A DNA stretch of 64,000 nucleotides, taken from positions 35,781-99,780 of the forward strand of contig CAKOQQ010000001.1 of the NCBI GenBank assembly GCA_934101425.1, read 5' to 3'. This document shows positions 7,525 through 61,143 of the stretch, in pieces; position 1 is the stretch's first letter, and every line of letters starts with the position of its first letter. This DNA is from an uncultured Bacilli bacterium (GTDB lineage: Bacteria > Bacillota_I > Bacilli_A > RF39 > UBA660). The notes below the pieces were generated by a model that saw nothing but the letters and a program-made list of their open reading frames with translations, was not told the DNA's origin and did not search any database. The translations under genes were made by a program, and so were the position numbers.

Positions 7525-7833
7525 TTATAATTTAATTTGAATATCAACACCACTTGGAATGTCAAGGTGAGTTAAAGCCTCAACTGTTTCCTTTGTAGGG
7601 TTTGTGATATCAATTAGTCTTTTGTGTGTTCTTTTTTCAAATTGTTCACGAGAATCTTTATATTTGTGAACAGCTCTTAAAATTGTAATTTTTTCAACTT
7701 CAGTTGGTAATGGAATTGGTCCACTTACTTCACCGCCAGTTCTTTTAACTGTTTCAACAATTTTAGCGCAAGCAGTATCAAGACTCTTGTGTTCAAATGC
7801 TTTTAATTTAATACGAACTTTGCTCTTAGACAT
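7525..7833 (-). CDS. rpsJ: 30S ribosomal protein S10
   Basis: 102 aa that starts [19 protein letters not shown]. It is the first gene of the S10 operon. Confidence 0.9.
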
Positions 7834-7966
7834 TTGGTATCCTCCTTTCGCCTATATCAAGTATAGACTTGCTCCGTGTAAAAACCTGATTTATAGTTTG
7901 ATTTTTGTAACAACTCAACCTGGTGTATCAGCAACCTCACACATCCACGCACGCTACACATACAAA
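7834..7966 (-). promoter_or_regulatory. 5' leader of the S10 operon, about 130 nt, comparatively GC-rich and structured. Possibly an L4-type autoregulatory leader.
   Basis: An untranslated stretch between a consensus promoter and rpsJ. It has locally higher GC (ccacgcacgctacac, cctggtgtatcagc) than its AT-rich surroundings. Confidence 0.35.
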
Positions 7967-7995
7967 ATTATATCTAATTATTATAAGAAAATCAA
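7967..7995 (-). promoter_or_regulatory. Sigma-A type promoter for the S10 operon, TTGATT-17-TATAAT
   Basis: On the minus strand there is a -35 TTGATT (plus 7990..7995), a 17-nt spacer and a -10 TATAAT (plus 7967..7972). Confidence 0.55.
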
Positions 7996-8003
7996 GTGTT
8001 TTT

Positions 8004-8031
8004 AGAAAAAAAATGAACTTTTATGTTCATT
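8004..8031 (-). terminator. Rho-independent terminator after pilin gene 8027..8950
   Basis: Hairpin AATGAAC-ataaaa-GTTCATT followed by a run of 9 T on the minus strand. It overlaps the stop codon. Confidence 0.6.
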
Positions 8032-8950
8032 TTAATTCTATTCTTTTTCCATGATTTTTAAACCATTTAATTACAACTGCATTTTTAACATCGTCGCCGC
8101 CAGTAATAGTTAATATTTTATATTTACTATTATACCAATTATTTTCTTCATAATAAGGGACATAAAACCCATTTTCTTTATCTATTGCATATAATATAAC
8201 ACCTTTATTAGCTTTTATGGTACTACCAAAAGGAAAATCTATTTTGTCAAAAGCTCCTGAAGTAAATCCGGCAGTAATACCAAAGGCACTAATTTGTAAA
8301 TCCATTGGTAATGGGGCATCAAACGGCAAATAAAGTGATGTAATACCTATATACTTTTTGCCATTAGAAGTAAATGTCAAGTTAGCATCTGATAAATCTA
8401 TTAGTTTATTAGCTTGTGAAGTAAAACCATCATTATAAGTAGAAACAGTACTAAATTTGTATCCTGTATCATCTAAAAGCCAAGTTGTATTAGTTAAATC
8501 TGTAACATCTTTATTTAATTCAATATAATTATCGGGTGTTTCTTCTTTTCCGTCTTCTTTCACTTCTTCAAATGTGCAATTCTTTTCACTTTCTTTATTA
8601 CTGTTTATAGTACCGTTAGCACTTATTTCTATGCAATAACCCGAAATGTACATTTTTCCATATGCATTACCTTCTTTATCATACTTTAAATATCCTTTGC
8701 TAGCCTTATCACCATCATAAGTAAATGGGCTATTCGATAAATCAATTTTATCTGTGTTTATATTATCCATTATATTTTGCAAATAATATGCTTTTGCTGC
8801 ACTCACTACATTTCTTGCGCTTGCTTCTGCCGCTGCTTTTTTAGAGTCTTCTATAATATTTAATACTGCTGGAGTTGCTATTAGTGCTATTACTGCTAGT
8901 ATCACTATTACGGCTAGTAACTCTATTAGTGTAAACCCTTTCTTTTTCAT
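8027..8950 (-). CDS. Type IV pilin-like protein with a class III signal peptide. One of three paralogs of about 300 aa.
   Basis: The N-terminus MKKKGFTLIELLAVIVILAVIALIATPAVLNIIEDSKK is a prepilin motif (G|FTLIE with Glu at +5). The first ~125 aa are near-identical to 38575..39474 and 44825..45733 (shared GYC(I/V)E...NGT motif), and the C-terminus is divergent. I trimmed the start to the internal ATG. Confidence 0.8.
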   Translation of the reverse strand: MKKKGFTLIELLAVIVILAVIALIATPAVLNIIEDSKKAAAEASARNVVSAAKAYYLQNIMDNINTDKIDLSNSPFTYDGDKASKGYLKYDKEGNAYGKMYISGYCIEISANGTINSNKESEKNCTFEEVKEDGKEETPDNYIELNKDVTDLTNTTWLLDDTGYKFSTVSTYNDGFTSQANKLIDLSDANLTFTSNGKKYIGITSLYLPFDAPLPMDLQISAFGITAGFTSGAFDKIDFPFGSTIKANKGVILYAIDKENGFYVPYYEENNWYNSKYKILTITGGDDVKNAVVIKWFKNHGKRIELK

Positions 8951-8971
8951 ATATCCTCCTCTATTTATAAG

Positions 8972-9007
8972 AAAACAAAAAAACAAAAAAACTAGGAATT
9001 TCCTAGG
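8972..9007 (-). terminator. Terminator-like or attenuator hairpin plus U-tract in the pilin leader (copy A)
   Basis: Minus-strand stem CTAGG-AAATT-CCTAG followed by TTTTTTTGTTTTTTTG. It lies between an upstream small ORF and the pilin RBS. Copy B at 45758..45792 has the same arrangement with a G.U-compensated stem. Confidence 0.45.
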
Positions 9008-9039
9008 TTTTATGTTTTATATATATGACTAATTACTAT

Positions 9040-9099
9040 TTAGTTAGTAAATAATATCGCCCAAGAAATATAAGAAGTATTATTTTTTGTATTAGCCAT
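9040..9099 (-). CDS. Conserved 19-aa upstream small ORF (MANTKNNTSYISWAILFTN), a possible leader peptide, preceding the pilin gene
   Basis: An ATG with an AAGGAAGT RBS 7 nt upstream. Its paralog at 45815..45880 encodes MANTNYNASHICVRVYLITIY. The first ~11 codons are conserved and the rest diverges. The six-frame track misses it because it is under 60 aa. Confidence 0.4.
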   Translation of the reverse strand: MANTKNNTSYISWAILFTN

Positions 9100-9122
9100 A
9101 CATTTACTTCCTTACTATATTA

Positions 9123-9151
9123 AGTATATATCTTTTCTATTAAGTTGTAAA
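9123..9151 (-). promoter_or_regulatory. Promoter TTTACA-17-TATACT driving the small ORF and the pilin gene (copy A)
   Basis: -35 TTTACA at plus 9146..9151, a 17-nt spacer, and -10 TATACT at plus 9123..9128. The identical architecture recurs at 45904..45932. Confidence 0.45.
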
Positions 9152-9165
9152 GAAGAATATATTAT

Positions 9166-9810
9166 TTAAAATGAATTCGATATTTTTCTTTTTATTAATA
9201 CATATAGTATTATTACTAAAAATGATGATCCACCAATGAGCATATAAGTTTTAATTGATACTTTTTGCTTTTCGCCTAATTTTATATATATTGTATGATC
9301 AACGCCTTCATCTAAATCACCACTTTCAAAACGCCATGTATATGTGTTTTGTTTTTTACTATGAGCATTAGTCTCTATTAATTTTCTATTTGTTTTTATA
9401 TTAATAACTACATCATCCAATTTGGTTCCATAATCACCATTTCTAATTGCATCAGAAGTTTTTATAGTTATTATATTATTTTCCTCTTTTATACTTACTT
9501 CATCATAAAATAAATTAACAATTGAATTTGATTCTAAATTTTTAATTTTTCCACTAGATGTATATTCATATCCAGTTACATCTATGCTTTTTTCTATAAT
9601 TTTTTCTTTATAGTTTGGCTTTTCTTGCCTAATAGTAGCTATCATAACATCAATGTTATTATCTTCTTCTTCAAGTTGTTCTTTCAATAAATTTTGATTT
9701 CCATATAAAAGCAAAGAATCTTTATAACTGTTATCTTTAATAATTAGATTATATTCAGCACTACATCCAGTTATGAATATAGCACATATTAAGATTAAAT
9801 ATTTTTTCAT
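9166..9810 (-). CDS. Lipoprotein with a C-terminal transmembrane anchor. An architectural paralog of 12529..13149.
   Basis: Signal peptide with a lipobox (LILICAIFITGC). A C-terminal hydrophobic helix (LIGGSSFLVIILYVLI) is followed by the basic tail KRKISNSF. Confidence 0.6.
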   Translation of the reverse strand: MKKYLILICAIFITGCSAEYNLIIKDNSYKDSLLLYGNQNLLKEQLEEEDNNIDVMIATIRQEKPNYKEKIIEKSIDVTGYEYTSSGKIKNLESNSIVNLFYDEVSIKEENNIITIKTSDAIRNGDYGTKLDDVVINIKTNRKLIETNAHSKKQNTYTWRFESGDLDEGVDHTIYIKLGEKQKVSIKTYMLIGGSSFLVIILYVLIKRKISNSF

Positions 9811-9818
9811 ATATACTC

Positions 9819-10841
9819 CTATGCGTATGGTCTAGTTACCATAATATACCATGGATTACCATTAGAAGGTGAAAATTTATATGACGGGCTATTTTTTATT
9901 TGAACTCCACCATTAGCTGAATGAATAATAGAAGTTATTCTTCCATTGGATACAGATAAAACGATTCCTACATGCAATATACAATTATATCTGTCGCATC
10001 TATCTCCGTGAGTAGTACCAACACAATTTGTACATTTACCACTTTTATTATACCTACTTGTAAAGAAAACATCGCCTGGTTTGATATCTGATTGTTTTAC
10101 ACATTTATTTCTTGTGTTTTTTGCTAATCTTGCAGCTGTTAAATCTGGAACATAATTTTTGTAAACCCAACTAACAAAATCAGAGCAATCCATCTTTTTA
10201 TATGGCGTTCCAATCTTAGTTTTTGCATTTGCTATTGCACTTTTAGCTATTCTTTCATTATATGTATTAGAACTAACAAAATTAGTACATCCTTTCCCAT
10301 ATGATGTTCCACCACTATAACCAGGTTCTTTATCATTATTGTTATTATTGTTACTATTGTTATTGTTGTTATTTTTATTATTGTTATTATTGTTATTTTT
10401 ATTTTCTTTCTCTTCTTTTATTTTTGCTTCTTCTCTTTTTATTTTTTCTTCTAGTTTCTTTTGAAGTTCCATTTCTTCTCTTAATTTTCTCTTTGCTTCT
10501 GCTTCTAAAATCTCTTTTTCTCTTAATGCTTTAATATTTTCATTTGTAGCATTAATCCAACAACTATTATTTTCTAATTTTTTTTCTCCAATTGACTCCA
10601 TTACAACATTATGTATTGGAATTATCAAAAATACCATTACACATGCTATTATTTTTTTTATAAATAGCATAGTGTATTCTCTCGAAACCTCTTTTGATAT
10701 AATTTGTTTAAGTAAAGTTATTGAAGAAGAAATAACTGTTATTATTGGTATAAAAACTAGTATAACCATCAAAATTGTTTTTATAATATAAATAACTCTT
10801 AAACTACTAGATGTGTTACATATTATTTGTAATATATTCAA
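9819..10841 (-). CDS. Membrane-anchored NlpC/P60 peptidoglycan endopeptidase with a poly-Asn linker
   Basis: Two N-terminal transmembrane helices, then a charged coiled region (KREEAKIKEEKENK), then an N-rich low-complexity linker. The C-terminal NlpC/P60 catalytic residues are present: DCSDFVSWVY (Cys), ILHVGIV (His) and IIHSANGG. Confidence 0.7.
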   Translation of the reverse strand: MNILQIICNTSSSLRVIYIIKTILMVILVFIPIITVISSSITLLKQIISKEVSREYTMLFIKKIIACVMVFLIIPIHNVVMESIGEKKLENNSCWINATNENIKALREKEILEAEAKRKLREEMELQKKLEEKIKREEAKIKEEKENKNNNNNNNKNNNNNNSNNNNNNDKEPGYSGGTSYGKGCTNFVSSNTYNERIAKSAIANAKTKIGTPYKKMDCSDFVSWVYKNYVPDLTAARLAKNTRNKCVKQSDIKPGDVFFTSRYNKSGKCTNCVGTTHGDRCDRYNCILHVGIVLSVSNGRITSIIHSANGGVQIKNSPSYKFSPSNGNPWYIMVTRPYA

Positions 10842-10842
10842 A

Positions 10843-11394
10843 TTAACCTCCTATTCTAAAGTCACATTTATCAATAAATTTATCTTTACTTTTTATACTA
10901 TATATTAATATAGTTGCCGCCAAAATGAAATTTACTATTAAAAATATTATTTTTATATTAGATTGTAAATTAGACCATAAATTCTTGAGAGCTTCAGTAT
11001 TTACAAATATCTTTTCATCATCAAATGTTTTTAAACTACTAACCATCTTATTAAACATTGAGTAATAGTTATACACTAATAACAAAATAAGTCCTACAAG
11101 TGAATACTTAAATACTTTTTCCCCATCATCTTTATAACAAACAAAATATTTAAAAGTATATTTTACACCATAAATTGTGGAAAAAAATACTATTAAGTAA
11201 TTTATAATACTTTTTGTACCAAAATAAATGTAATAATAACTACTACTTGTATTAGACATATTTTTAGCTAAAAAAGCAAATACTTTATTACTTACAAATC
11301 CGCCAATTAAAGTAAAAACAACAAAACATATTATAAAGACTATTATTAAATTAATAGTCATAACAATACTATTCATTAAAGGTCTTCTTCTCAT
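10843..11394 (-). CDS. Polytopic membrane protein, hypothetical
   Basis: 183 aa with about five hydrophobic segments. It sits immediately upstream of, and is co-oriented with, the NlpC/P60 gene (2-nt gap). Confidence 0.4.
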   Translation of the reverse strand: MRRRPLMNSIVMTINLIIVFIICFVVFTLIGGFVSNKVFAFLAKNMSNTSSSYYYIYFGTKSIINYLIVFFSTIYGVKYTFKYFVCYKDDGEKVFKYSLVGLILLLVYNYYSMFNKMVSSLKTFDDEKIFVNTEALKNLWSNLQSNIKIIFLIVNFILAATILIYSIKSKDKFIDKCDFRIGG

Positions 11395-11441
11395 ATTATC
11401 ACATCTTAATTATATCATAACTAAAAATAAAAAACCACTCA

Positions 11442-11660
11442 CTATTTAGTGAATGGTAAAATTGCCATAAATCTAGCTTTTTTAACTTCTTGAGCAATAT
11501 GTCTTTGATGTTTTGCACATGCACCAGTGATTCTTCTTGGTAAGATTTTACCTTTATCACCACTTACATATTTTTTTATAATATCAGCATCTTTGTAATC
11601 AACGCTTTTTCCTGCACACATTTGACATATTTTTTTCTTTTTTCTATAAAATTCTGCCAT
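11442..11660 (-). CDS. rpsR: 30S ribosomal protein S18
   Basis: 72 aa ending [10 protein letters not shown], an S18 signature. It follows ssb. Confidence 0.9.
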
Positions 11661-11673
11661 GTTTTCCTCCTTA

Positions 11674-12132
11674 TTAATCTAGGAAGTTGTCATCGATAGA
11701 AACGCTATCACCAAATTCAGCGAATGGATCATCATTAACATCTACATCATTATGTGGTGTATCTGCATAATCATATGGAGTAGGAGCACTACTACTTGTA
11801 CTAGGACTAGAGTCTTTCTTTCCTCCAACAAAATGAATTGTATCTACAACTACATCAAAACTTGATCTTCTATTTCCATCTTTATCATCGTAACTTCCAG
11901 TTTGTATTCTTCCTTCAAGAGCAATAAGACTTCCTTTATCAAAATATTGACATATAAGTTCTGCTTGTTTTCTCCAAGCTACAATATTTATAAAGTCAGC
12001 TTCTCTTTGACCTTGACTATTAGTAAAATTTCTATTTACTGCTATTGAAAATCTAGTTGTTGGAATATTAGTACTTGTGTATCTTAATTCAGGTTTAGCA
12101 GTAAGTCTTCCTAGTAAACAAACTCTATTCAT
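11674..12132 (-). CDS. ssb: Single-stranded DNA-binding protein
   Basis: An OB-fold N-terminus ([19 protein letters not shown]...), a Gly/Ser/Pro-rich linker and an acidic C-terminal tail (DDNFLD). It sits in the rpsF-ssb-rpsR arrangement. Confidence 0.85.
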
Positions 12133-12142
12133 TTTATACCTC

Positions 12143-12433
12143 TTAGTCTTCTTTCTTTGTAATTAAATGTCTTACGATGTCTGAACTGATTAATGCTAAT
12201 CTATCAAATTCTTTAATTGCTTTGTCATCATCAGCACTTACTTCTAGAACAAAATAATATCCACTTTTGAAATCTTTAATTTCATAAGCTAATTCTCTTT
12301 GTCCCATTTCAGTAAATTCGTTTACTTTTCCACCATTTGTAGTAATTACATTCTTAAAACTTTCAGTAACTTTTTTAAGATCGTCTTCACCTACTGTAGG
12401 TCTAACTATAAACATAATTTCATAATTTTTCAT
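12143..12433 (-). CDS. rpsF: 30S ribosomal protein S6
   Basis: 96 aa that starts MKNYEIMFIVRP, the S6 N-terminus. Confidence 0.9.
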   Translation of the reverse strand: MKNYEIMFIVRPTVGEDDLKKVTESFKNVITTNGGKVNEFTEMGQRELAYEIKDFKSGYYFVLEVSADDDKAIKEFDRLALISSDIVRHLITKKED

Positions 12434-12528
12434 TTCTACACCTCCTTATGGACTTTTGGCCTGTTTAGGCAAGGAGTAATTTAATACTCGTAATGATTAT
12501 AGCAAACTTAAATTATTTTGTAAAGCAT

Positions 12529-13149
12529 TTATATACTATTTGCTTTTCTTATCTTTTTAAGTACTATAAATAATATAACTACTGCTATTCCTAATATTAT
12601 ATATATAGTATATGAACTAGCAGATACTTTATCATATTCGTTAGAAAAAGTAATATTTATAGGTTTATCCATATAATTATCTTTATTTATAACCCATACA
12701 TAATATTTTCCTTCTCTTTTATCAGAATTATTATTTTTAGCTTTATACATTGACTTAATTCTTATTTTTACTTCTTCTAAATCAGGATACATATCAAAGC
12801 ACTTAAATTCTTCTGTTGTACTAACTACTATTTCTTGTCTTCTTACAACACTTACATTATCATAACACTTAGTTAAAAAAGTCATTAGTTCATAATTATC
12901 ATAGTCATTAGTATAAGTATATTCTTTTGAAATAGCACTATTAGAAGTATATATTAAATTTTTACTATAATTTTCAAAACCTTTTTCAAAGTTAGCAAAT
13001 TCACTAGTTAAATCTTTATCCTTCAAATACTCTTTTGTACCAGTTATTAGTAATGTTTCTTTTACTTCATCTCTTGAAAATTCTATTTCTATATTAGCAG
13101 TACAACCTGTTATTAATAGTAATAGTATTATTAAGTATAATTTTTTCAT
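12529..13149 (-). CDS. Lipoprotein with a C-terminal transmembrane anchor (paralog of 9166..9810)
   Basis: Lipobox LLLLITGC. C-terminal hydrophobic helix (IYIILGIAVVILFIVL) followed by KKIRKANSI. Its start overlaps the end of the upstream gene by 4 nt. Confidence 0.6.
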   Translation of the reverse strand: MKKLYLIILLLLITGCTANIEIEFSRDEVKETLLITGTKEYLKDKDLTSEFANFEKGFENYSKNLIYTSNSAISKEYTYTNDYDNYELMTFLTKCYDNVSVVRRQEIVVSTTEEFKCFDMYPDLEEVKIRIKSMYKAKNNNSDKREGKYYVWVINKDNYMDKPINITFSNEYDKVSASSYTIYIILGIAVVILFIVLKKIRKANSI

Positions 13150-14069
13150 TTTTCCACCTCACATAATTTCTTACATGTAGGATAGCTTTTATAAACTACT
13201 TTAGCAGGTTCAATTCTATCATCGCTTTTAAAGTATAGGCCATACTTATAAGCATTATTGTGTGCCCACTCTTTAGTCTTTTCATCGGCAAAATATAGAT
13301 TAGCACTTATTCCATAACTATATAATTCACTATCCGGATTTATAATATAATCACATTTAGTATTACAGTCATCATCACTACTATTCCATACTTCTAAAAA
13401 CTTATCATAACTTCTATAACCAATACTTATTTTTATTTTATTTTCAGAATCAGTTATCATTTTACTTAATCTATCATAAAATATTGGATTAAGACCATAA
13501 TTATTATCTCTTCTATTCATATCTTTTGCTGATCCTAATATATAAAATATACCATTTTTATATTCTAGATTTCCCCATTTATTATCATTAAATTTAGTTA
13601 TTATAGTAGATGTTCTTGTTTCATTATTATTTTTATTTTCAGAATTTATCTTTGATATTTCTTTTTTATTATATTCTTTAATACTATTTTCTAGTTTTAA
13701 GTATTCTTCTTCTACTACGTTTTTATTTTCTTCTACTTCTTTTTTATTCTTTTCTAAAATATTTATATTTTCTAAATTAGCGTATTTAAGGCAATAATTA
13801 ATATTTGATTTATATTCATCTAAGCCTTTAAATGAATATATAATTAAATACATTACTGATACAATAACTAGTGAAAGCAAAAATGATTTAAAAAAAGATT
13901 TCTTTGTTTTACTACTTCTAATACCAGTAATAAGATTATATATGATTTTTATTAAAAATATAAATGGTATTAAAGCACAAATAAATAATACTACATACTT
14001 AGTATATTTAATTATGTTAAATATTAGTTTCAAATCTTCTAACTTAGTACAATCTAAGAGTATATACAT
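13146..14069 (-). CDS. Membrane-anchored VanY/M15B-like D,D-carboxypeptidase domain protein with degenerate zinc ligands (probable pseudo-peptidase)
   Basis: N-terminal transmembrane helices and a charged coiled region. The C-terminus has the SIGYRSYD motif typical of M15B. In the expected SxHxxGxAxD block it reads SELYSYGISANL (His to Leu, Asp to Asn). In the expected EPWH block it reads IEPAKVVY (His to Lys). The neighbouring motif EWAHNNAYKYGLYF is conserved. Confidence 0.55.
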   Translation of the reverse strand: MYILLDCTKLEDLKLIFNIIKYTKYVVLFICALIPFIFLIKIIYNLITGIRSSKTKKSFFKSFLLSLVIVSVMYLIIYSFKGLDEYKSNINYCLKYANLENINILEKNKKEVEENKNVVEEEYLKLENSIKEYNKKEISKINSENKNNNETRTSTIITKFNDNKWGNLEYKNGIFYILGSAKDMNRRDNNYGLNPIFYDRLSKMITDSENKIKISIGYRSYDKFLEVWNSSDDDCNTKCDYIINPDSELYSYGISANLYFADEKTKEWAHNNAYKYGLYFKSDDRIEPAKVVYKSYPTCKKLCEVEK

Positions 14070-14104
14070 AAATCCTCCTCTAAAGAAAAAATGTGAAAAT
14101 AAAT

Positions 14105-15205
14105 TTACACATTAAATCTGAAATGACAAATATCCCCATCTTGCATAATGTAATCTTTTCCTTCAAGTCTCATAAGACCATTTGCTCTTACATTAGCTTC
14201 ATTACCACATTTTTCTAAAGCTTCATAGCTCATTACTTCTGCTCTTATAAATCCTCTTTCAAAATCACTATGAATAATACCAGCACATTCTGGAGCTTTC
14301 ATACCTTTAGTAAATGTCCAAGCTTTTACTTCATCAGATCCTACAGTAAAATATGTTGCAAGTCCAAGTAAATCATAAGTAGCTTTAATTAATTTATCAA
14401 GGCCACTTTCTTTAATGCCTAAATCTTCTAAGAATGTTTTTTTATCTTCATCAGATAATTCACTTAATTCTGATTCTATTTTAGCACAAACAGTTATAAC
14501 TTTACTATTTTCTTCTTTGGCATAATTACGAACTTTTTCTACATAATCATTTGTATCTGTAAGTAAATCACTTTCTTCTACATTTGCCATATATATAATT
14601 GGTTTTAAAGTTAAGAAATTAAAAGCTTTTATCATAGCTAATTCTTCACTAGTAAAATCTAGACTTCTTATCGGTTTATTTTGTATTAGCGCTTCTCTTA
14701 TCTTATTTAAAAGCTCAACTTCTTTAATAGTTTCTTTATCTTTACTCATAGAAGCTTTTTTACCAATTTTAGAAAGTCTCGTTTCTACAACTTCTAAATC
14801 TGCAAGTATAAGCTCTATATTTATTATTTCTATATCACGTATAGGATCAACACTAGATTCAACGTGAATAATGTTATTATCATCAAAACATCTAACAACT
14901 TCTACTATAGCATCTACTTCTCTTATATGTGATAAAAATTTATTTCCAAGTCCTTCACCTTTACTAGCTCCTTTTACAAGTCCTGCTATATCTGTGAATT
15001 CAAATGACGTAGGGATAACTCTTTCTGGAACATATAAGTTTTCTAAAAATTCCATTCTTTTATCTGGCACAATAACCATTCCTACATTTGGATCAATAGT
15101 TGCAAATGGATAATTTGCAGCTAATATATTTTTCTTTGTAATTGCATTAAATAATGTGGACTTTCCTACATTTGGAAGTCCTACAATTCCTGCTGTTAAA
15201 GCCAT
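14105..15205 (-). CDS. ychF: Ribosome-binding ATPase YchF (Obg-family GTPase)
   Basis: G1 motif GIVGLPNVGKSTLFNAIT and a C-terminal TGS domain. 366 aa, the usual YchF length. Confidence 0.9.
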   Translation of the reverse strand: MALTAGIVGLPNVGKSTLFNAITKKNILAANYPFATIDPNVGMVIVPDKRMEFLENLYVPERVIPTSFEFTDIAGLVKGASKGEGLGNKFLSHIREVDAIVEVVRCFDDNNIIHVESSVDPIRDIEIINIELILADLEVVETRLSKIGKKASMSKDKETIKEVELLNKIREALIQNKPIRSLDFTSEELAMIKAFNFLTLKPIIYMANVEESDLLTDTNDYVEKVRNYAKEENSKVITVCAKIESELSELSDEDKKTFLEDLGIKESGLDKLIKATYDLLGLATYFTVGSDEVKAWTFTKGMKAPECAGIIHSDFERGFIRAEVMSYEALEKCGNEANVRANGLMRLEGKDYIMQDGDICHFRFNV

Positions 15206-15217
15206 TTTATCCCCCCC

Positions 15218-16738
15218 CTATAAAATTACATGTGTACTAGGTCCAAGTGGTAAATTAGCTACATACCAACCTAATATAATTACTAACCAAGTACAAGCCA
15301 TAATAACTATAACTGGCATCATTAATTTTAATGTACCAAATATTGTAATTTTCTTTTTTTCATTTGTATTATATTTTTCTAGGAATGCTAATAAAATTAT
15401 AAAATATACAAATAATGGTGTAATACATTTTCCTATAGAATCTGCAGCTTTAAATACCATTTGTGCATAATCGGGACTAGTACTAGCTTTCATAAATAAT
15501 GGTACCATTATAGGTGATATAAGTGTCCATTTTTCTGTAGTACCAGGTATAAATATACTCATTATTATAATTGCAAAGAACATAACAACTACTAATATAA
15601 ATGCTGGTACATCAAGTCTACTAACTAAATTTACAAGACCAGAACTTATTACTTCTGGTATATTAGTCCAATTTAATAAGCCTAATAATTGAGCTGTAAA
15701 GAATAATAATACAAATAAATAACCTAATTCTTCAAAATTAACTGATAATCCTACACTATAATCATTTGTATCCTTAAAGTTTTTAGAAACAAAACCATAT
15801 ATAAAACTACAAATCATAAGTGTAATTAAAAATATAAATAATATGCCATAATTAAATGGTGATTCACTACCTAATAGTTTTTCAATATAAGTGTTACCAG
15901 GCCCTAATAATAATCCAGATTTATAGGCTCCTGGAACAATTTCATATATAACAGCTACTAAAATAAGTAAAAAAGCAATTAAACTATAAAATAAACCTTT
16001 TCCAGATTCTTTCTTTTCTTCTGTTATTATTTCATTTTTACCTATCTTAGGGTATAAAAATTTCTTTATAGCACTAGTACCAACAATACATAAAAGTATT
16101 GTAGCAGTAATCATTATATATAAATTTGATAATGGATTAAATACATATGTAGAATCAACTGTTGCTGTTGCTGCTGCACTTGTACTTATTCCCATAGTTA
16201 TATCATCCATATTATAGAATAATCCTGCACCATAACCAAGTGTAATACCTAAGAATATTGTATATATACCCAGTAATGGTTTTTTACCAGCTTGTTCATA
16301 TATAACAGCCACTAAAGGAATAAGTATTATATAACTATATTCTCCTATAATAGATGATACAACACCTACTAATAATGTTAAAAAGATAAGAAAATCAATA
16401 TTTATTTTTTTTACTTTTTTAAACATTACTTGGAATAATCCACTAGCTTCTCCTATACCAATAGCCATAAGAGACATTATAAGTAAAAATAATGGTCTTA
16501 ATAATTCTAAATTAGTAATAGAATTCTTAATTATAGAAATAATACCATTAAAACTAAGCGCATTATTAACAGTTATAATAGGTGATGATTCTAAAGTATT
16601 ATTGTTTATAACAGACTTTGAAACACCAACTTCCATCATAGATAAGACTGTGCTTGCAATCATAGTTATAAGTATTAATACTATAATAGTTATAACAGGC
16701 CCTACTGATAGTCTCTCTTTAATTGATTTTTTAGCCAT
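15218..16738 (-). CDS. AbgT-family transporter (p-aminobenzoyl-glutamate transporter family)
   Basis: 506-aa polytopic protein. Its C-terminal region (SPIMVPLFM...AQMVFKAADS...WLVIILGWYVANLPLGPS) parallels the E. coli AbgT C-terminus. Confidence 0.6.
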   Translation of the reverse strand: MAKKSIKERLSVGPVITIIVLILITMIASTVLSMMEVGVSKSVINNNTLESSPIITVNNALSFNGIISIIKNSITNLELLRPLFLLIMSLMAIGIGEASGLFQVMFKKVKKINIDFLIFLTLLVGVVSSIIGEYSYIILIPLVAVIYEQAGKKPLLGIYTIFLGITLGYGAGLFYNMDDITMGISTSAAATATVDSTYVFNPLSNLYIMITATILLCIVGTSAIKKFLYPKIGKNEIITEEKKESGKGLFYSLIAFLLILVAVIYEIVPGAYKSGLLLGPGNTYIEKLLGSESPFNYGILFIFLITLMICSFIYGFVSKNFKDTNDYSVGLSVNFEELGYLFVLLFFTAQLLGLLNWTNIPEVISSGLVNLVSRLDVPAFILVVVMFFAIIIMSIFIPGTTEKWTLISPIMVPLFMKASTSPDYAQMVFKAADSIGKCITPLFVYFIILLAFLEKYNTNEKKKITIFGTLKLMMPVIVIMACTWLVIILGWYVANLPLGPSTHVIL

Positions 16739-19827: not shown

Positions 19828-21441
19828 TTATTCACTTAATTCTTTTTCTAATTTACCTTGTTTATCACCAAGTATACTTCTTTGTTCATTTACTTTATTT
19901 ATAGCAGAATTTATAGTATCTATATAAGTTACAAAGTTTGGTGTACCATTTGTTCTTACCCCAAGAGCTGATGATGTAAATGTATATTTTAGAAGTCCTA
20001 ATTCTTTATCAATCGAATTACCTATTTTTAATACTTGGATACTATTAAAAGTAGTTTCATTATATATTCTATCTATTTCATCTTGTAAAGCTACCATTTC
20101 CTCCATGATAGAATTTATATCAGAATTACTATTACCATTAGCAGCTTTAACTGATAATTCATTCATTCTTTGTAATATACTATGAGTTTCTGTTAGTGCT
20201 CTTTCCATTATCTTTATCGCACTAATTAGATTTCGTTTATATGAATCCATATCATCAGGGTTTAATTCTTTGCCTACTAATTTATCTAATATAACCTTAT
20301 TAGCAGTTATTTTATCATCAGTTATATTATTTATATCAATAATAGTTAAGCCTGTTGCACTAAATTTCAAACTAGAATCATTTACTGAATTAGCTATTTC
20401 ATCTAAATTTCTTTTAAATAAAGTATTTGCTTCTATAATAAGTGCTTTTTTATCTATTTCAGTATTAGTAGCCATTAAAGCTTGTACATGTAACTCTTGA
20501 GCTCTAGATAATACTTTAGTATATAAAGCTCTTTTACAAGCCTCATCTGCACATGATTCTAAAGATTTACTATATTCTAATGAATTTTGATATGCTCCAA
20601 ATATACTTCTTTGTTCACTTACTTTATTTATAGCAGATTCTATTCTTTTCATATAATCTTTAAAATCAGGAGTTGTTCTTTGCTTTACATCTAATCCTTC
20701 TGAATTAATAGTATATTTTAATAAATCTACTATTTCATTAAACATATTATCTTCTTGTAAAACTTTTTCATTTTGAAAAGATGTTTCATTATATATTCTA
20801 TCTATTCCATCTTGTAGCTCTATTAGTTCATCCATAATAGAAGCTATATCAGAACTTGTATTAGTATCATTTGCAGCTTTAACTGATAATTCATTCATTT
20901 TTTGTAATATGCCATGAGTTTCTGTTAGTGCTCCTTCAGCAACTATAATTTCACGTAATAATAAATCATTAAAATTGGCACTTGACTTACTAACACAACT
21001 AGCACTAGTAGTAAACTCTTCTATTAAAAATTTATCTTCTTCTATACTATAATAATTACAATATTTATCATTATAAAATACTGCTGACACTAGTAATCTA
21101 TTAGTCTTACGAATATATCCTGTAGTATCATTCAAAGCTTTATCCATACTTACCGTTTCATTTTCTACTGTTACACCTTTAAGTTCTAAAACATTAATTT
21201 TACCTTCTGTTAATGAATAATAACTATCTTTCTCATCACCATTTAAAAAATCATAATTATTTACACTTCTCATTACACTTTGTACAGAAGCTTTAAAAGC
21301 TTCTCTTTTTGAGTCTTCTACAATATTTAATACAGCAGGTACCGCTATTGCTGCAATTATTGCTAGTATTACTATTACTGCGAGTAACTCTATTAGTGTA
21401 AATCCTTTCTTACTTTTATAATTACCTTTTACTTTCTTCAT
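19828..21441 (-). CDS. Type IV pilin-like protein fused to two tandem flagellin D1-like units (pilin-flagellin chimera)
   Basis: The N-terminus MKKVKGNYKSKKGFTLIELLAVIVILAIIAAIAVPAVLNIVEDSKRE is a prepilin signal. The body contains AEGALTETHGILQKMNELSVKAANDTNTSSDIASIMDELIELQDGIDRIYNETSFQNEKVL. This is near-identical to the B. subtilis Hag D1 N-helix (AEGALTETHAILQRVRELVVQAGN...EIDGISNRTEFNGKKLL). It also contains IESAINKVSEQRSIFGAYQNSLEYS, matching the Hag D1 C-helix (AINQVSSQRAKLGAVQNRLEHT). A second unit follows (ALTETHSILQRMNELSVKAANGNSNSDINSIMEEMVALQDEIDRIYNETTFN; INSAINKVNEQRSILGDKQ). The flagellin D0 termini are absent. Confidence 0.85.
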   Translation of the reverse strand: MKKVKGNYKSKKGFTLIELLAVIVILAIIAAIAVPAVLNIVEDSKREAFKASVQSVMRSVNNYDFLNGDEKDSYYSLTEGKINVLELKGVTVENETVSMDKALNDTTGYIRKTNRLLVSAVFYNDKYCNYYSIEEDKFLIEEFTTSASCVSKSSANFNDLLLREIIVAEGALTETHGILQKMNELSVKAANDTNTSSDIASIMDELIELQDGIDRIYNETSFQNEKVLQEDNMFNEIVDLLKYTINSEGLDVKQRTTPDFKDYMKRIESAINKVSEQRSIFGAYQNSLEYSKSLESCADEACKRALYTKVLSRAQELHVQALMATNTEIDKKALIIEANTLFKRNLDEIANSVNDSSLKFSATGLTIIDINNITDDKITANKVILDKLVGKELNPDDMDSYKRNLISAIKIMERALTETHSILQRMNELSVKAANGNSNSDINSIMEEMVALQDEIDRIYNETTFNSIQVLKIGNSIDKELGLLKYTFTSSALGVRTNGTPNFVTYIDTINSAINKVNEQRSILGDKQGKLEKELSE

Positions 21442-44824: not shown

Positions 44825-45733
44825 CTATACCTTCATTGCAAACATCGTAGGGCCAAGGATTGGTAATGTTACAGTTGCATATCCATTTTTTTCGTCATAA
44901 TCACTTAAAGAAACAAAATATACTTTTCCAGTTTCAGAATCTACTTGTATAACTATTAAATCTTCTTTTGTTAGATTTTTAATACCTTCTGATTCTATAA
45001 TAAGTTCTATTTCTGAACTTGTTTCAAAAGATAATGTATTATTTTCTAAGATAGCGATATCATAAAAACTAGTAAATATTTCATAATTATTTAAATTAAT
45101 AACTTCGCCACTAGTATTTTTAATATTTTCTGTTGTATCAACAGACAAGTTAGTTAACATATCTTGTAAGTTCATTGTAGAATTTTCTTTATTGCGATTT
45201 TTTACTACTTCTCCAACAGTTTTGTTAAGATAAGCATCTGGCCTTGCTACATATGCGCCAATATTTGAGTTTCCTGATATAACTTTATTAACAGCAATAC
45301 CATTAAAAGCATCTGAAGCTACTGGATTATCAGTAGTTGTTGAATCATTTTCTATACTACATTCACTTTCTTTTACTTTGTCACTACTTACTGTTCCATC
45401 GCTTTTAATTTCTACACAGTAACCTGATACATACATTTTTCCATATGCATTACCATTCTTATCATAGCTTATAGATCCTTTAGTAGCTTGTTCACCATCA
45501 TATGCTAAAGTCTTTTTGGATAAGTCTATTGTTCCTATGCTTATGTTATCCATTAAATTTTGCATATAATATGATTTTGCTGCACTCACTATATTTCTTG
45601 CACTTGCTTCTGCTGCTGCTTTTTTAGAGTCTTCTATAATATTTAATACTGCAGGAGTTGCAATTAGTGCTATTACTGCTAGTATCACTATTACGGCTAA
45701 GAGCTCTATTAATGTAAATCCTTTCTTTTTCAT
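44825..45733 (-). CDS. Type IV pilin-like protein, paralog of 8027 and 38575
   Basis: MKKKGFTLIELLAVIVILAVIALIATPAVLNIIEDSKKAAAEASARNIVSAAK... Its N-terminal ~125 aa are near-identical to the other two. The C-terminal region is related to that of 38575. Confidence 0.8.
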   Translation of the reverse strand: MKKKGFTLIELLAVIVILAVIALIATPAVLNIIEDSKKAAAEASARNIVSAAKSYYMQNLMDNISIGTIDLSKKTLAYDGEQATKGSISYDKNGNAYGKMYVSGYCVEIKSDGTVSSDKVKESECSIENDSTTTDNPVASDAFNGIAVNKVISGNSNIGAYVARPDAYLNKTVGEVVKNRNKENSTMNLQDMLTNLSVDTTENIKNTSGEVINLNNYEIFTSFYDIAILENNTLSFETSSEIELIIESEGIKNLTKEDLIVIQVDSETGKVYFVSLSDYDEKNGYATVTLPILGPTMFAMKV

Positions 45734-60080: not shown

Positions 60081-60114
60081 CCTAATTACATAAATTATGT
60101 TAGGAGGTAAGTCA

Positions 60115-60573
60115 ATGAATAATAATTATTATAATCAAAATATGTTTGATACTACAAACTTAACTAGTGACTATTATAATTATGTAAATAATAATTATAA
60201 TCAGCCATATAATCAAAATATGAAGAATATAAATATATATAACCCATATCAAGGTTATATAAGAGGTAATATGTTTCCTGATTTATATAACACATATAAA
60301 ATAAATGCACCTTTTGAAATTGAGCCATTAAATGAACAGGCTGATATGCTTACTAATATTGACGCTTATTCATTTGCATTAAAAGACTTAAATTTATATT
60401 TAGATGTTTACCCTAATGATAAAACTATGATTGATTTATATAATAGATATTTAATGCAAAAAAAGCAAATTGTTAGAGATTACGAAAATAAATATGGGCC
60501 TTTAACATTAGATAGTGAATCATTAAATAAATATCCTTGGGCGTGGGATGGTAAACTCCCATGGGATAGATAG
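60115..60573 (+). CDS. cotJB: Spore coat protein CotJA-CotJB fusion with an N/Y-rich low-complexity N-terminus
   Basis: The N-terminal part has the CotJA motif PYQGYIRGNMFPDLYNTY. The C-terminal part, AYSFALKDLNLYLDVYPNDKTMIDLYNRYLMQKKQIVRDYENKYGPLT...PWAWD, matches CotJB. I trimmed the start to the ATG after the AGGAGGT RBS. Confidence 0.75.
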   Translation: MNNNYYNQNMFDTTNLTSDYYNYVNNNYNQPYNQNMKNINIYNPYQGYIRGNMFPDLYNTYKINAPFEIEPLNEQADMLTNIDAYSFALKDLNLYLDVYPNDKTMIDLYNRYLMQKKQIVRDYENKYGPLTLDSESLNKYPWAWDGKLPWDR

Positions 60574-60582
60574 GAGGTTAAT

Positions 60583-61143
60583 ATGTGGGCATATGAAAAA
60601 AAATTACAATATCCTGTTAACATAAACAAAAAGGATTTGAAATTAGCTAAATATTTACTAAGTCAATATGGTGGTCCTGATTCAGAACTTGCTGCTGCTA
60701 CTAGATATCTAAATCAAAGATATACTATGCCAGATGATAAGGGGAAAACACTTCTTACTGATATTGGTACTGAAGAATTAGGTCACTGGGAAATGATCGC
60801 CGCTATGATATATCAACTTATGAAAGGTGCAACTATAGAAGAATTAAAAGAAGCTGGATTAGGTGCAAATTTTGCACAACACGATCATGCTCTTTTCATA
60901 ACAGATGCTAATGGAGTACCTTTTACTACTTCTTATATAGAAGCTAGTGGAGATTTTATAGCTGATTTAGAAAGTGATATGGCAGCTGAACAAAGAGCTA
61001 GAGCTACTTATGAACATTTAATGGATTTAACTACTGATCCAGAAGTAATAGCACCACTAGCATTTTTAAGACAAAGAGAAATTGTTCATTATCAAAGATT
61101 TAAAGAACTAAGAAATTACTATTTAGAAAATAATACTAAATAG
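60583..61143 (+). CDS. cotJC: Spore coat protein CotJC (manganese catalase family)
   Basis: MWAYEKKLQYPVNI...ELAAATRYLNQRY...EELGHWEMIAAMIYQL. 186 aa, directly downstream of cotJB. Confidence 0.85.
   Translation: MWAYEKKLQYPVNINKKDLKLAKYLLSQYGGPDSELAAATRYLNQRYTMPDDKGKTLLTDIGTEELGHWEMIAAMIYQLMKGATIEELKEAGLGANFAQHDHALFITDANGVPFTTSYIEASGDFIADLESDMAAEQRARATYEHLMDLTTDPEVIAPLAFLRQREIVHYQRFKELRNYYLENNTK

Follow-up and report, generated by a model that had tools for sequence, protein, structure and literature searches.

Two peptidoglycan hydrolase-lipoprotein modules around rpsF-ssb-rpsR in an uncultured low-GC Bacilli bacterium are probably derived from a type IV secretion system

Introduction

What are two sets of genes for cell wall enzymes and lipoproteins doing on either side of the core genes rpsF-ssb-rpsR, and why does one of the enzymes appear to have lost its metal site? 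This question is raised by positions 9166 to 14069 of a 64,000-nucleotide stretch of DNA (the window) from an uncultured Bacilli bacterium (contig CAKOQQ010000001.1). The window is low in guanine plus cytosine (GC; ~26%) and its YchF is at most 77% identical to that of GTDB genomes labelled "Bacilli bacterium", "Tenericutes" and "Mycoplasma/Clostridium sp. CAG". The genes concerned all lie on the minus strand, to which all window coordinates below refer unless otherwise stated, in the order: ychF, a gene for a protein related to M15 metallopeptidases (the M15-like protein), lipoprotein 2, rpsF, ssb, rpsR, a gene for a 183-amino-acid (aa) membrane protein, a gene for an NlpC/P60 protein (the P60 protein), lipoprotein 1, a type IV pilin-like gene and the S10 operon. 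Module 2 comprises the M15-like protein and lipoprotein 2; module 1 comprises the 183-aa protein, the P60 protein and lipoprotein 1.

The original prediction, made from the letters alone, had seen here duplicated modules of a membrane-anchored peptidoglycan hydrolase and a lipoprotein, with a degenerate hydrolase regulating an active one in the way of EnvC and NlpD. The two modules do flank rpsF-ssb-rpsR, with their open reading frames (ORFs) as placed. Their position around ssb near the origin had been thought peculiar; it is ordinary as far as rpsF-ssb-rpsR is concerned, since the neighbourhood of these genes with ychF and parAB is, we take it, the usual origin-proximal arrangement of Firmicutes, as in B. 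subtilis, and what varies is the intergenic slots.

The main point was absent from that prediction: the hydrolases begin with hairpins resembling VirB2, the pilin of type IV secretion systems (T4SSs), and the lipoproteins belong to a family encoded in T4SS gene clusters. We favour, with moderate confidence, the view that the modules stem from the wall-crossing part of an MPF_FATA-like T4SS of Gram-positive type in the chromosomes of low-GC gut Bacilli and are orphan or dispersed cassettes of it.

Results

A pilin-like hairpin at the N terminus of both hydrolases

The P60 protein (340 aa; 9819..10841) and the M15-like protein (307 aa; 13146..14069) share a common build, in which a two-helix hairpin and a coiled coil precede an enzyme-type domain; in the P60 protein a poly-Asn linker separates the two parts. 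The first ~150 residues, which include the two hydrophobic helices and the coiled coil, are homologous between the two proteins (E 6e-6), and the modules are thus of one kind. In the M15-like protein hydropathy places the transmembrane (TM) segments at about residues 19-51 and 58-83.

A phmmer search with the N terminus of the P60 protein retrieved proteins of 417 aa, 417 aa and 402 aa from the related loci L109 (7e-9), L103 (1.6e-6) and L091 (5.5e-7). The L103 and L091 proteins exceed the threshold of Pfam PF18895 (T4SS_pilin) exactly in the stretch aligned to the P60 protein, and the L109 protein is closely similar. An iterated profile started from the window N termini matched small pilins of 100-160 aa, two to four paralogues of which head each T4SS cluster, with E values of 1e-25 to 1e-35; the same profile scores the M15-like protein at 2e-16 and the P60 protein at 2.6e-21. 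When both window N termini were aligned with these T4SS-cluster pilins (alignment A7) and the alignment used as a query, 1,853 proteins were found. The top matches are ~100-147 aa long, many already carry a PF18895 annotation, and among them is a protein of an NCBI "Bacilli bacterium" metagenome-assembled genome (MAG).

Within this alignment Cys93 is invariant and both Cys7 and Pro35 are nearly so; the proline lies in helix 1 and the loop is basic. One cysteine precedes helix 1 and the other follows helix 2 (C7/C93 in the M15-like protein, C8/C94 in the P60 protein), and 118 of 120 small pilins have both. Judged by these links through intermediate proteins, the N termini of the hydrolases (13770..14069 in module 2 and 10542..10841 in module 1) are VirB2-like T4SS pilin hairpins. 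The positive-inside rule would place the loop in the cytoplasm and both ends, with their cysteines and the enzyme domain, outside. One might speculate that the cysteine pair closes the hairpin by a disulfide, which would recall the head-to-tail cyclisation that VirB2 and TrbC undergo.

A lipoprotein family with a conserved double-anchor design

Lipoprotein 1 (214 aa; 9166..9810) and lipoprotein 2 (206 aa; 12529..13149) both carry a lipobox cysteine at position 16, a domain resembling that of LppM, a C-terminal TM helix and a basic tail. They are homologous from end to end (BLASTP E 2e-13, 26% identity). Since the hydrolase N termini are homologous as well, the common architecture of the two modules is not a coincidence, which answers a doubt that had been left with the first description.

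The family to which they belong is large: a full HMMER scan finds 2,696 clusters at 50% identity with an E-value cut-off of 1e-3, and 1,914 with a cut-off of 1e-10; lipoprotein 2 matches the family profile at 9.5e-49. The 150 members listed are 168-268 aa long and nearly all were matched end to end. The lipobox cysteine is invariant, a motif NNAD.V.GNTYTW is shared, and a C-terminal TM helix occurs in 149 of the 150 as well as in both window proteins. The lipobox paired with a C-terminal helix, noted earlier as unusual, is therefore the conserved design of the whole family. None of ten clusters looked up carries a named annotation.

An AlphaFold2 model built from an alignment of 18 relatives (predicted local distance difference test, pLDDT, 77; predicted template modelling score, pTM, 0.69) has the fold of LppM (PDB 2nc8), at a sequence identity of ~10-12%, which is at the noise limit. 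Weak, sub-threshold matches to the Pfam LppM family occur in 7 of 150 relatives (best E 0.0058), and profiles of the lipoprotein family did not find 2nc8 among PDB sequences, so the link is a structural one. We are aware of nothing that connects LppM to hydrolases or T4SSs. LppM itself (Rv2171 of Mycobacterium tuberculosis; PF21946) is actinobacterial, unlike the proteins described here, and is composed as they are, a lipobox-bearing signal peptide being followed by a beta-rich domain and, at the C terminus, a TM helix (PMC5217060). LppM was reported to have a novel fold (PMC5217060, PMC6151718), and the protein binds phosphatidylinositol mannosides and affects phagocytosis (PMC6151718).

The large family also permits the relationship between the modules to be judged. 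Among 199 members, each window lipoprotein ranks the other only 56th and 103rd, and lipoprotein 2 is nearer to a lipoprotein from a T4SS cluster (L094, 32%) than to lipoprotein 1. The modules are paralogous, as had been proposed, but these ranks indicate old paralogues or separate acquisitions and not a local duplication.

Type IV secretion clusters in related contigs

The neighbourhoods of family members were compared in 61 loci, 56 from a metagenome scan and five by protein look-up, of which 60 have a called family gene. All are low in GC (0.23-0.33). The longer loci show a recurrent gene order: an array of VirB2-like genes, a VirB6-like gene (700-965 aa, with a weak TrbL match), genes for proteins of ~106 aa and ~183 aa, a VirB4-like ATPase of 594 aa (TraG P-loop, AAA_10), a peptidoglycan hydrolase, the lipoprotein and, either directly or a few genes on, the type IV coupling protein (T4CP; T4SS-DNA_transf, TraG-D_C). 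Of the 60 loci, 24 have a T4CP gene one to four genes downstream of the lipoprotein and 14 have a VirB4-like gene upstream of it. Such chromosomal clusters, with two to four divergent PF18895 genes, the VirB6-like, ~106-aa and VirB4-like genes and the T4CP, are found within about 10 kb on either side of the lipoprotein gene in L094, L095, L106, L108, L111, L117, L131, L138, L143 and L144.

In these clusters the gene directly before the lipoprotein almost always encodes a peptidoglycan enzyme, whose catalytic domain is freely exchanged. A census of 42 upstream neighbours together with the two window proteins (44 scanned) gave SpoIID (13), NlpC/P60 (8), M23 (6), CHAP (6), Amidase_5 (4), lysozyme (3), glucosaminidase (1) and an intact VanY domain (1). 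Fusions built like those of the window, with a pilin hairpin joined to a CHAP or GDSL domain, also occur directly before the lipoprotein, in L102, L103 and L109. Some T4SS clusters hold two lipoprotein-family genes (L144:8760-11894; L106:7554-11683), and those of L144 form two tandem hydrolase-lipoprotein pairs, both P60-like; cassettes in several copies therefore already exist inside T4SS clusters.

Other copies stand alone among core genes. A protein with lysozyme and M23 domains and its lipoprotein precede holA in L004, another copy precedes secA in L091, and a lipoprotein-family gene on its own lies between nrdD-nrdG and cdaA-cdaR-rplM-rpsI in many gut contigs (L112, L118-L124, L127-L129, L137, L139 and L140; near locus position 10000).

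Two observations place the loci with full T4SS clusters in the bacterial group of the window. Beyond the T4CP gene lies rmuC, whose product is 63-74% identical to the RmuC encoded 6-8 kb before ychF in GTDB "Bacilli bacterium" MAGs, and the two regions are collinear (rhodanese, RmuC, small genes). The second observation concerns L082, a locus from one of these MAGs: its first positions (L082:2-256) are the 3' end of a T4CP gene, 9.7 kb upstream of ychF. L084:1508-2967 is also among the T4SS-cluster regions. In L094, a stretch of 10 kb around the cluster showed neither a relaxase nor an integrase domain.

The enzyme domains: one presumably active, one without its metal site

The C-terminal domain of the P60 protein (9822..10304) matches NlpC/P60 (PF00877) over residues 212-265 with 27.3 bits against a gathering score of 23, and CHAP over residues 213-304 (E 6e-4). 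Cys219, in DCSDFVSW, aligns with the catalytic cysteine motif DCSSFVRW of CwlO (8wt3). The three motifs DC219S, LH290VGIV and IIH307S are kept in an orthologue of 62% identity (L150), and the last two also in a paralogue (L144); a PDB search with a two-sequence profile gave no structure-anchored alignment reaching His290 or His307. Of the Cys/His/His set named in the original prediction, the cysteine is borne out and the two histidines are probable; the P60 protein is presumably an active cysteine peptidase. Its catalytic domain contains an unusual insertion with four cysteines (C270 to C287), retained in the L150 orthologue and in the L144 paralogue. The poly-Asn linker (10326-10400) varies in length between strains, the protein being 340 aa long in the window and in L007 and 346 aa in L006 and L008, as is typical of slippage in a simple repeat.

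Relatives of the M15-like protein are few: only six clusters at 90% identity, all of 307-311 aa, and a scan of GTDB genomes with its alignment found none. The protein scores 12.9 bits against Pfam VanY, below the threshold of 25, and has no Pfam match to M23. Single-sequence searches of the PDB with either catalytic domain gave nothing significant and profiles were needed. The family profile of the M15-like protein matches B. subtilis LdcB/YodJ (4ox3) at E 1.3e-6, followed by pneumococcal LdcB and other M15 enzymes. By hhalign the family aligns with the intact VanY domain of L114 with 96.2% probability (E 2e-9); this domain, found at the same position in its cassette, has the motifs SNHGFGIAAD and EPWH and can in turn be aligned with LdcB.

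In the resulting alignment of the M15-like domain (13149..13577) with LdcB and VanY (MEROPS M15B), homology runs across the GYRS, HxxGxAxD and EPWH blocks, and all three zinc ligands are replaced (His by Tyr250, Asp by Asn257, His by Lys290). The loss of the ligands and the retention of GYRS had both been predicted; only the first ligand position had been misplaced, at Leu249 instead of Tyr250. Orthologues show H/Y, N/K/L and K/R at the three positions, with His at position 250 in four of five aligned orthologues. Invariant among them are Arg219 (of GYRS), Glu287 and cysteines 235, 239, 299 and 303. The protein thus differs from LdcB and VanY in its ligands, in two additional CxxxC pairs and in its fusion to a pilin-like hairpin and coiled coil. 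On this alignment, the view of the domain as a pseudo-enzyme of M15B type without a metal site stands.

Both extracellular domains therefore hold four conserved cysteines in CxxC/CxxxC pairs (residues 270-287 of the P60 protein, 9975-10032; residues 235-303 of the M15-like protein, 13158-13368). The two sets could form disulfides or a structural metal site.

Conservation of the modules

Module 2 is syntenic in a relative (L001) at ~52% identity, in the order ychF, M15-like protein, lipoprotein, rpsF, ssb, rpsR. In L001 a pilin-like gene follows straight after rpsR, so module 1 is absent from that site; orthologues of module 1 occur elsewhere (P60 domain 62% identity, lipoprotein 50%). Conservation around rpsF-ssb-rpsR, which the original prediction had proposed to examine, thus holds for module 2 alone in this relative. 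Every ORF of the modules is intact in all four strains. Taken together, the synteny, the orthologues with their motifs and the intact ORFs suggest that the modules are kept as functional genes.

The slot between ychF and rpsF (12434-14104 in the window) is hypervariable across 54 ychF loci (L001-L088), ranging from 60 bp to 7.8 kb with unrelated cargo that includes a recurrent ~600-aa protein, a ten-gene block and a 662-aa pilin-like protein. Such variability points to a hot spot of gene insertion.

Locus layout and predicted transcription units

The core genes rpsF (12143-12433), ssb (11674-12132) and rpsR (11442-11660) occupy 11442..12433 between the modules and match Pfam Ribosomal_S6, SSB and Ribosomal_S18. 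Promoter-like and terminator-like sites were predicted as matches to consensus patterns. A sigma-70 promoter-like site in front of rpsF (12496..12524; TTTACA-17-TATAAT, 11 of 12 matches) has TG preceding the -10 hexamer, and module 2, lying upstream of it, would be separated by it from the rps genes. A hairpin with a T-run resembling an intrinsic terminator at the end of rpsR (11434..11457) would isolate module 1 from them on the other side. A further terminator-like hairpin, matched on both strands, follows module 1 and precedes the pilin-like gene (8992..9006); going by these predicted sites, module 1 would form its own transcription unit. Module 2 begins 35 nucleotides after ychF (14105-15205), and this gap has no terminator-like site in the consensus scan. 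Within module 2 the stop codon of the M15-like gene overlaps the start of lipoprotein 2 by four nucleotides (ATGA), as originally described, with a ribosome-binding site, GAGGTG, just upstream.

The first gene of module 1 (10843..11394) encodes a small polytopic membrane protein, 183 aa as an ORF and annotated as 177 aa in other strains. It matches no Pfam family and has no homologue in the 61 related loci. Its identity with the ~183-aa protein of the T4SS clusters was considered and rejected, a profile of the latter giving no match.

Directly downstream of module 1 lies the type IV pilin-like gene (8027-8986), one of three large genes of this kind with a prepilin N-methylation motif (the others at 19828-21441 and 44825-45733). 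In relatives such genes adjoin members of the lipoprotein family (L140) or occupy the slot between ychF and rpsF (L082). An S10-Clostridia ribosomal protein leader (Rfam RF03136; 7848-7955) lies upstream of rpsJ with 35.7 bits against a gathering score of 35.1, and is the sole match in an Rfam scan of 7800-15400. Further away, at 60097-61143 on the plus strand, a pair of genes for CotJB and a CotJC-like Mn-catalase, annotated through the near-identical contig L089, hints at genes of spore-coat type in an organism with a reduced genome. Gene orientation and GC skew both flip at ~55700. A replication origin at this strand switch (~55.7 kb) was considered and rejected: the genes on either side are not dnaA but code for a radical-SAM and an HD-domain protein, and the origin is not visible in the window.

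Discussion

How the modules might work

If the modules derive from a T4SS, the hydrolase-type protein and the lipoprotein would both act on the extracellular side of the membrane. The hairpin might target the wall-active domain to a membrane complex and hold it there, with the coiled coil joining the hairpin to the domain that acts on peptidoglycan. The P60 copy would cut stem peptides locally. The M15-like copy may instead bind stem peptides without cutting them, or tune a partner; binding is suggested because Arg219 and Glu287, residues of the substrate side, are kept while the metal site is lost. The lipoprotein would be held at both ends, by its N-terminal lipid and its C-terminal helix. 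It is more likely to be a generic hydrolase partner or scaffold than a specific inhibitor, because one and the same family accompanies many catalytic folds, a dead enzyme and a non-enzyme.

Relation to known systems

The nearest functional counterparts are the VirB1-like hydrolases of Gram-positive T4SSs, such as PrgK of pCF10, TraG of pIP501 and Orf14 of Tn916, to which CwlT of ICEBs1 presumably also belongs. Like the proteins described here they are membrane-anchored, extracellular and modular, with CHAP or NlpC/P60, lysozyme/SLT and LytM/M23 domains, and in the loci of the relatives the hydrolase gene stands right after that of the VirB4-like ATPase. They differ in being anchored by a single TM segment and not by a VirB2-like hairpin; moreover, the window copies lie outside any T4SS cluster and not between a VirB4-like ATPase and a coupling protein, and where the LppM-fold lipoprotein follows here, pCF10 has the VirB8-like PrgL. 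PrgK also carries a degenerate domain without metal, which is LytM and not M15B: it down-regulates the active muramidase domain, and PrgK works with the product of the next gene, PrgL (bioRxiv 10.1101/2024.02.15.580431).

The hairpins resemble VirB2/TrbC pilins (PF18895) and the VirB2 arrays of Patescibacteria in having two TM helices, a basic loop and, in the clusters, several divergent paralogues. In the window, however, the hairpin is the N-terminal domain of an enzyme-type protein of 307-340 aa and not a free pilin of ~100 aa. Gram-positive T4SSs are said to lack VirB2, with the exception of Patescibacteria (PMC12857230; PMC4027160), whose systems have VirB2 arrays, MPF_FATA ancestry, rare relaxases and an origin-proximal location (bioRxiv 10.1101/2024.02.15.580431). 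From their gene content, the Bacilli clusters look like systems of this type, with MPF_FATA-like partners, a chromosomal position near origin-proximal genes and no relaxase seen nearby, although the hosts here are Bacilli.

Weighing the type IV secretion origin

Several observations weigh against a T4SS-derived origin and role. Neither window protein matches Pfam T4SS_pilin at E up to 1, membership being reached through intermediates and profiles only, and neither lipoprotein matches Pfam LppM (PF21946), that assignment being structural. The structure model of the M15 domain is poor (pLDDT 55). In the nrdDG...cdaA context the gene before the lipoprotein encodes a TM helix with a long acidic disordered region and no enzyme, so partnership with a hydrolase is not universal. 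Neither module, nor any member of the lipoprotein family, occurs in 80 GTDB loci anchored on ychF, which limits the observed synteny to close relatives. Substitutions between strains are too few to measure selection. Finally, the 64-kb window, although it holds two members of the lipoprotein family and two hairpin domains, yielded neither a T4CP gene nor any gene resembling VirB4, VirB6 or VirB3; the modules are therefore orphan or dispersed if T4SS-derived.

This last point also speaks for the most serious competing explanation, in which the modules are domesticated housekeeping units of wall remodelling with no link to a T4SS, making room for type IV pilin-like filaments, for example, or aiding cell separation. 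Both modules are surrounded by core genes; module 2 is conserved vertically, a type IV pilin-like gene directly follows module 1 and others adjoin family members in L140, and further orphan copies are beside holA, secA, or nrdDG and cdaA. Yet a mere anchor would not need the pilin hallmarks that the hairpin has kept (the cysteine pair, Pro35 and the basic loop), and dispersal is no proof of independence: in Patescibacteria, VirB2-like genes are often away from virB4, being near it in 1,135 of the 1,948 assemblies having both (bioRxiv 10.1101/2024.02.15.580431). We regard domestication of this kind as possible but doubtful. A T4SS origin leaves room for a change of role, and here the balance is about even: our best guess is that the modules continue to work for a VirB2-type T4SS whose genes lie elsewhere in the genome, the alternative being co-option for ordinary wall remodelling.

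The regulatory pairing of the original prediction, in which the M15-like pseudo-enzyme controls the active P60 protein or another wall hydrolase as EnvC and NlpD do, so that the two form one pair for growth, division or sporulation, fares considerably worse and we consider it unlikely. Its appeal lies in a dead, extracellular metallopeptidase-fold domain preceded by a coiled coil, as in EnvC, in the invariance of Arg219, Glu287 and the four cysteines despite the lost metal site, and in the precedent of PrgK, where a metal-less domain regulates an active one within a T4SS hydrolase. The degenerate domain is, however, M15 and not LytM/M23, and neither FtsEX nor an amidase was seen among the examined genes adjoining the modules. 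The modules are parted by the predicted promoter-like site and terminator-like hairpin, each has its own lipoprotein, the two being only distant paralogues, and the pairing is not conserved, since L001 keeps module 2 but has, immediately behind rpsR, a pilin-like gene in place of module 1. By analogy with PrgK, a regulatory role of the degenerate domain within a T4SS is conceivable.

Slightly less probable still is that the modules are toxin-immunity pairs, the hydrolases being antibacterial effectors that degrade peptidoglycan and the lipoproteins their cognate immunity proteins, comparable to Tae/Tsi of the type VI secretion system and X-Tfe/X-Tfi of the Xanthomonas T4SS. A hydrolase gene overlapping or closely followed by one for a membrane-tethered extracytoplasmic protein has the expected form, the catalytic domains are as interchangeable as those of polymorphic toxins, and the lipoproteins come from a family with ties to T4SS clusters. 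An immunity protein specific for an active site would nevertheless not accompany at least ten unrelated catalytic folds, as this one family does, nor stand beside a dead M15 domain and a non-enzyme; and the hydrolases, which keep either a two-TM hairpin or a lone TM segment as their anchor, are not obviously released.

That the modules are decaying, functionless remnants of an integrated conjugative element is very improbable. In its favour are the T4SS derivation and orphan state of the modules, the loss of one catalytic site and a nonsynonymous-to-synonymous ratio between strains that is, on few substitutions, somewhat above that of ychF. But the ORFs are intact in four of four strains and in orthologues of 50-62% identity with length, motifs and cysteines kept, ribosome-binding sites and translational coupling are preserved, and no integrase or relaxase remnant was noticed adjoining the modules.

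Implications

The derivation from a T4SS that we favour can be extended, tentatively, to a broader proposal which we hold to be rather unlikely as a whole: that gut Bacilli with reduced genomes, perhaps RF39-like, carry a chromosomal VirB2-type T4SS, reported among single-membrane bacteria from Patescibacteria alone, with two features not described before, the LppM-fold lipoprotein as a conserved core partner of the wall hydrolase and pilin-hydrolase fusions that bring domains for cutting or binding the wall to the site of pilus assembly, that the cassettes of the window are dispersed working parts of it, and that the machine serves a host- or partner-dependent lifestyle and not plasmid transfer.

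Should the T4SS-derived reading be true, some 2,700 unannotated protein clusters would gain a fold (LppM), a topology and a genomic role as partners of T4SS wall hydrolases, and the LppM fold would have its first functional context outside mycobacteria. With the LytM domain of PrgK as the first, the metal-less M15B domain would be the second case of a T4SS-type hydrolase retaining a dead wall-enzyme domain, and a tractable one for asking what such domains do. VirB2-like pilins, which according to reviews are missing from Gram-positive T4SSs other than those of Patescibacteria, would occur in gut Bacilli both as arrays and as fusions to enzymes. This would bear on the origin of the Patescibacteria system and on whether bacteria with a single membrane build pili of conjugative type.

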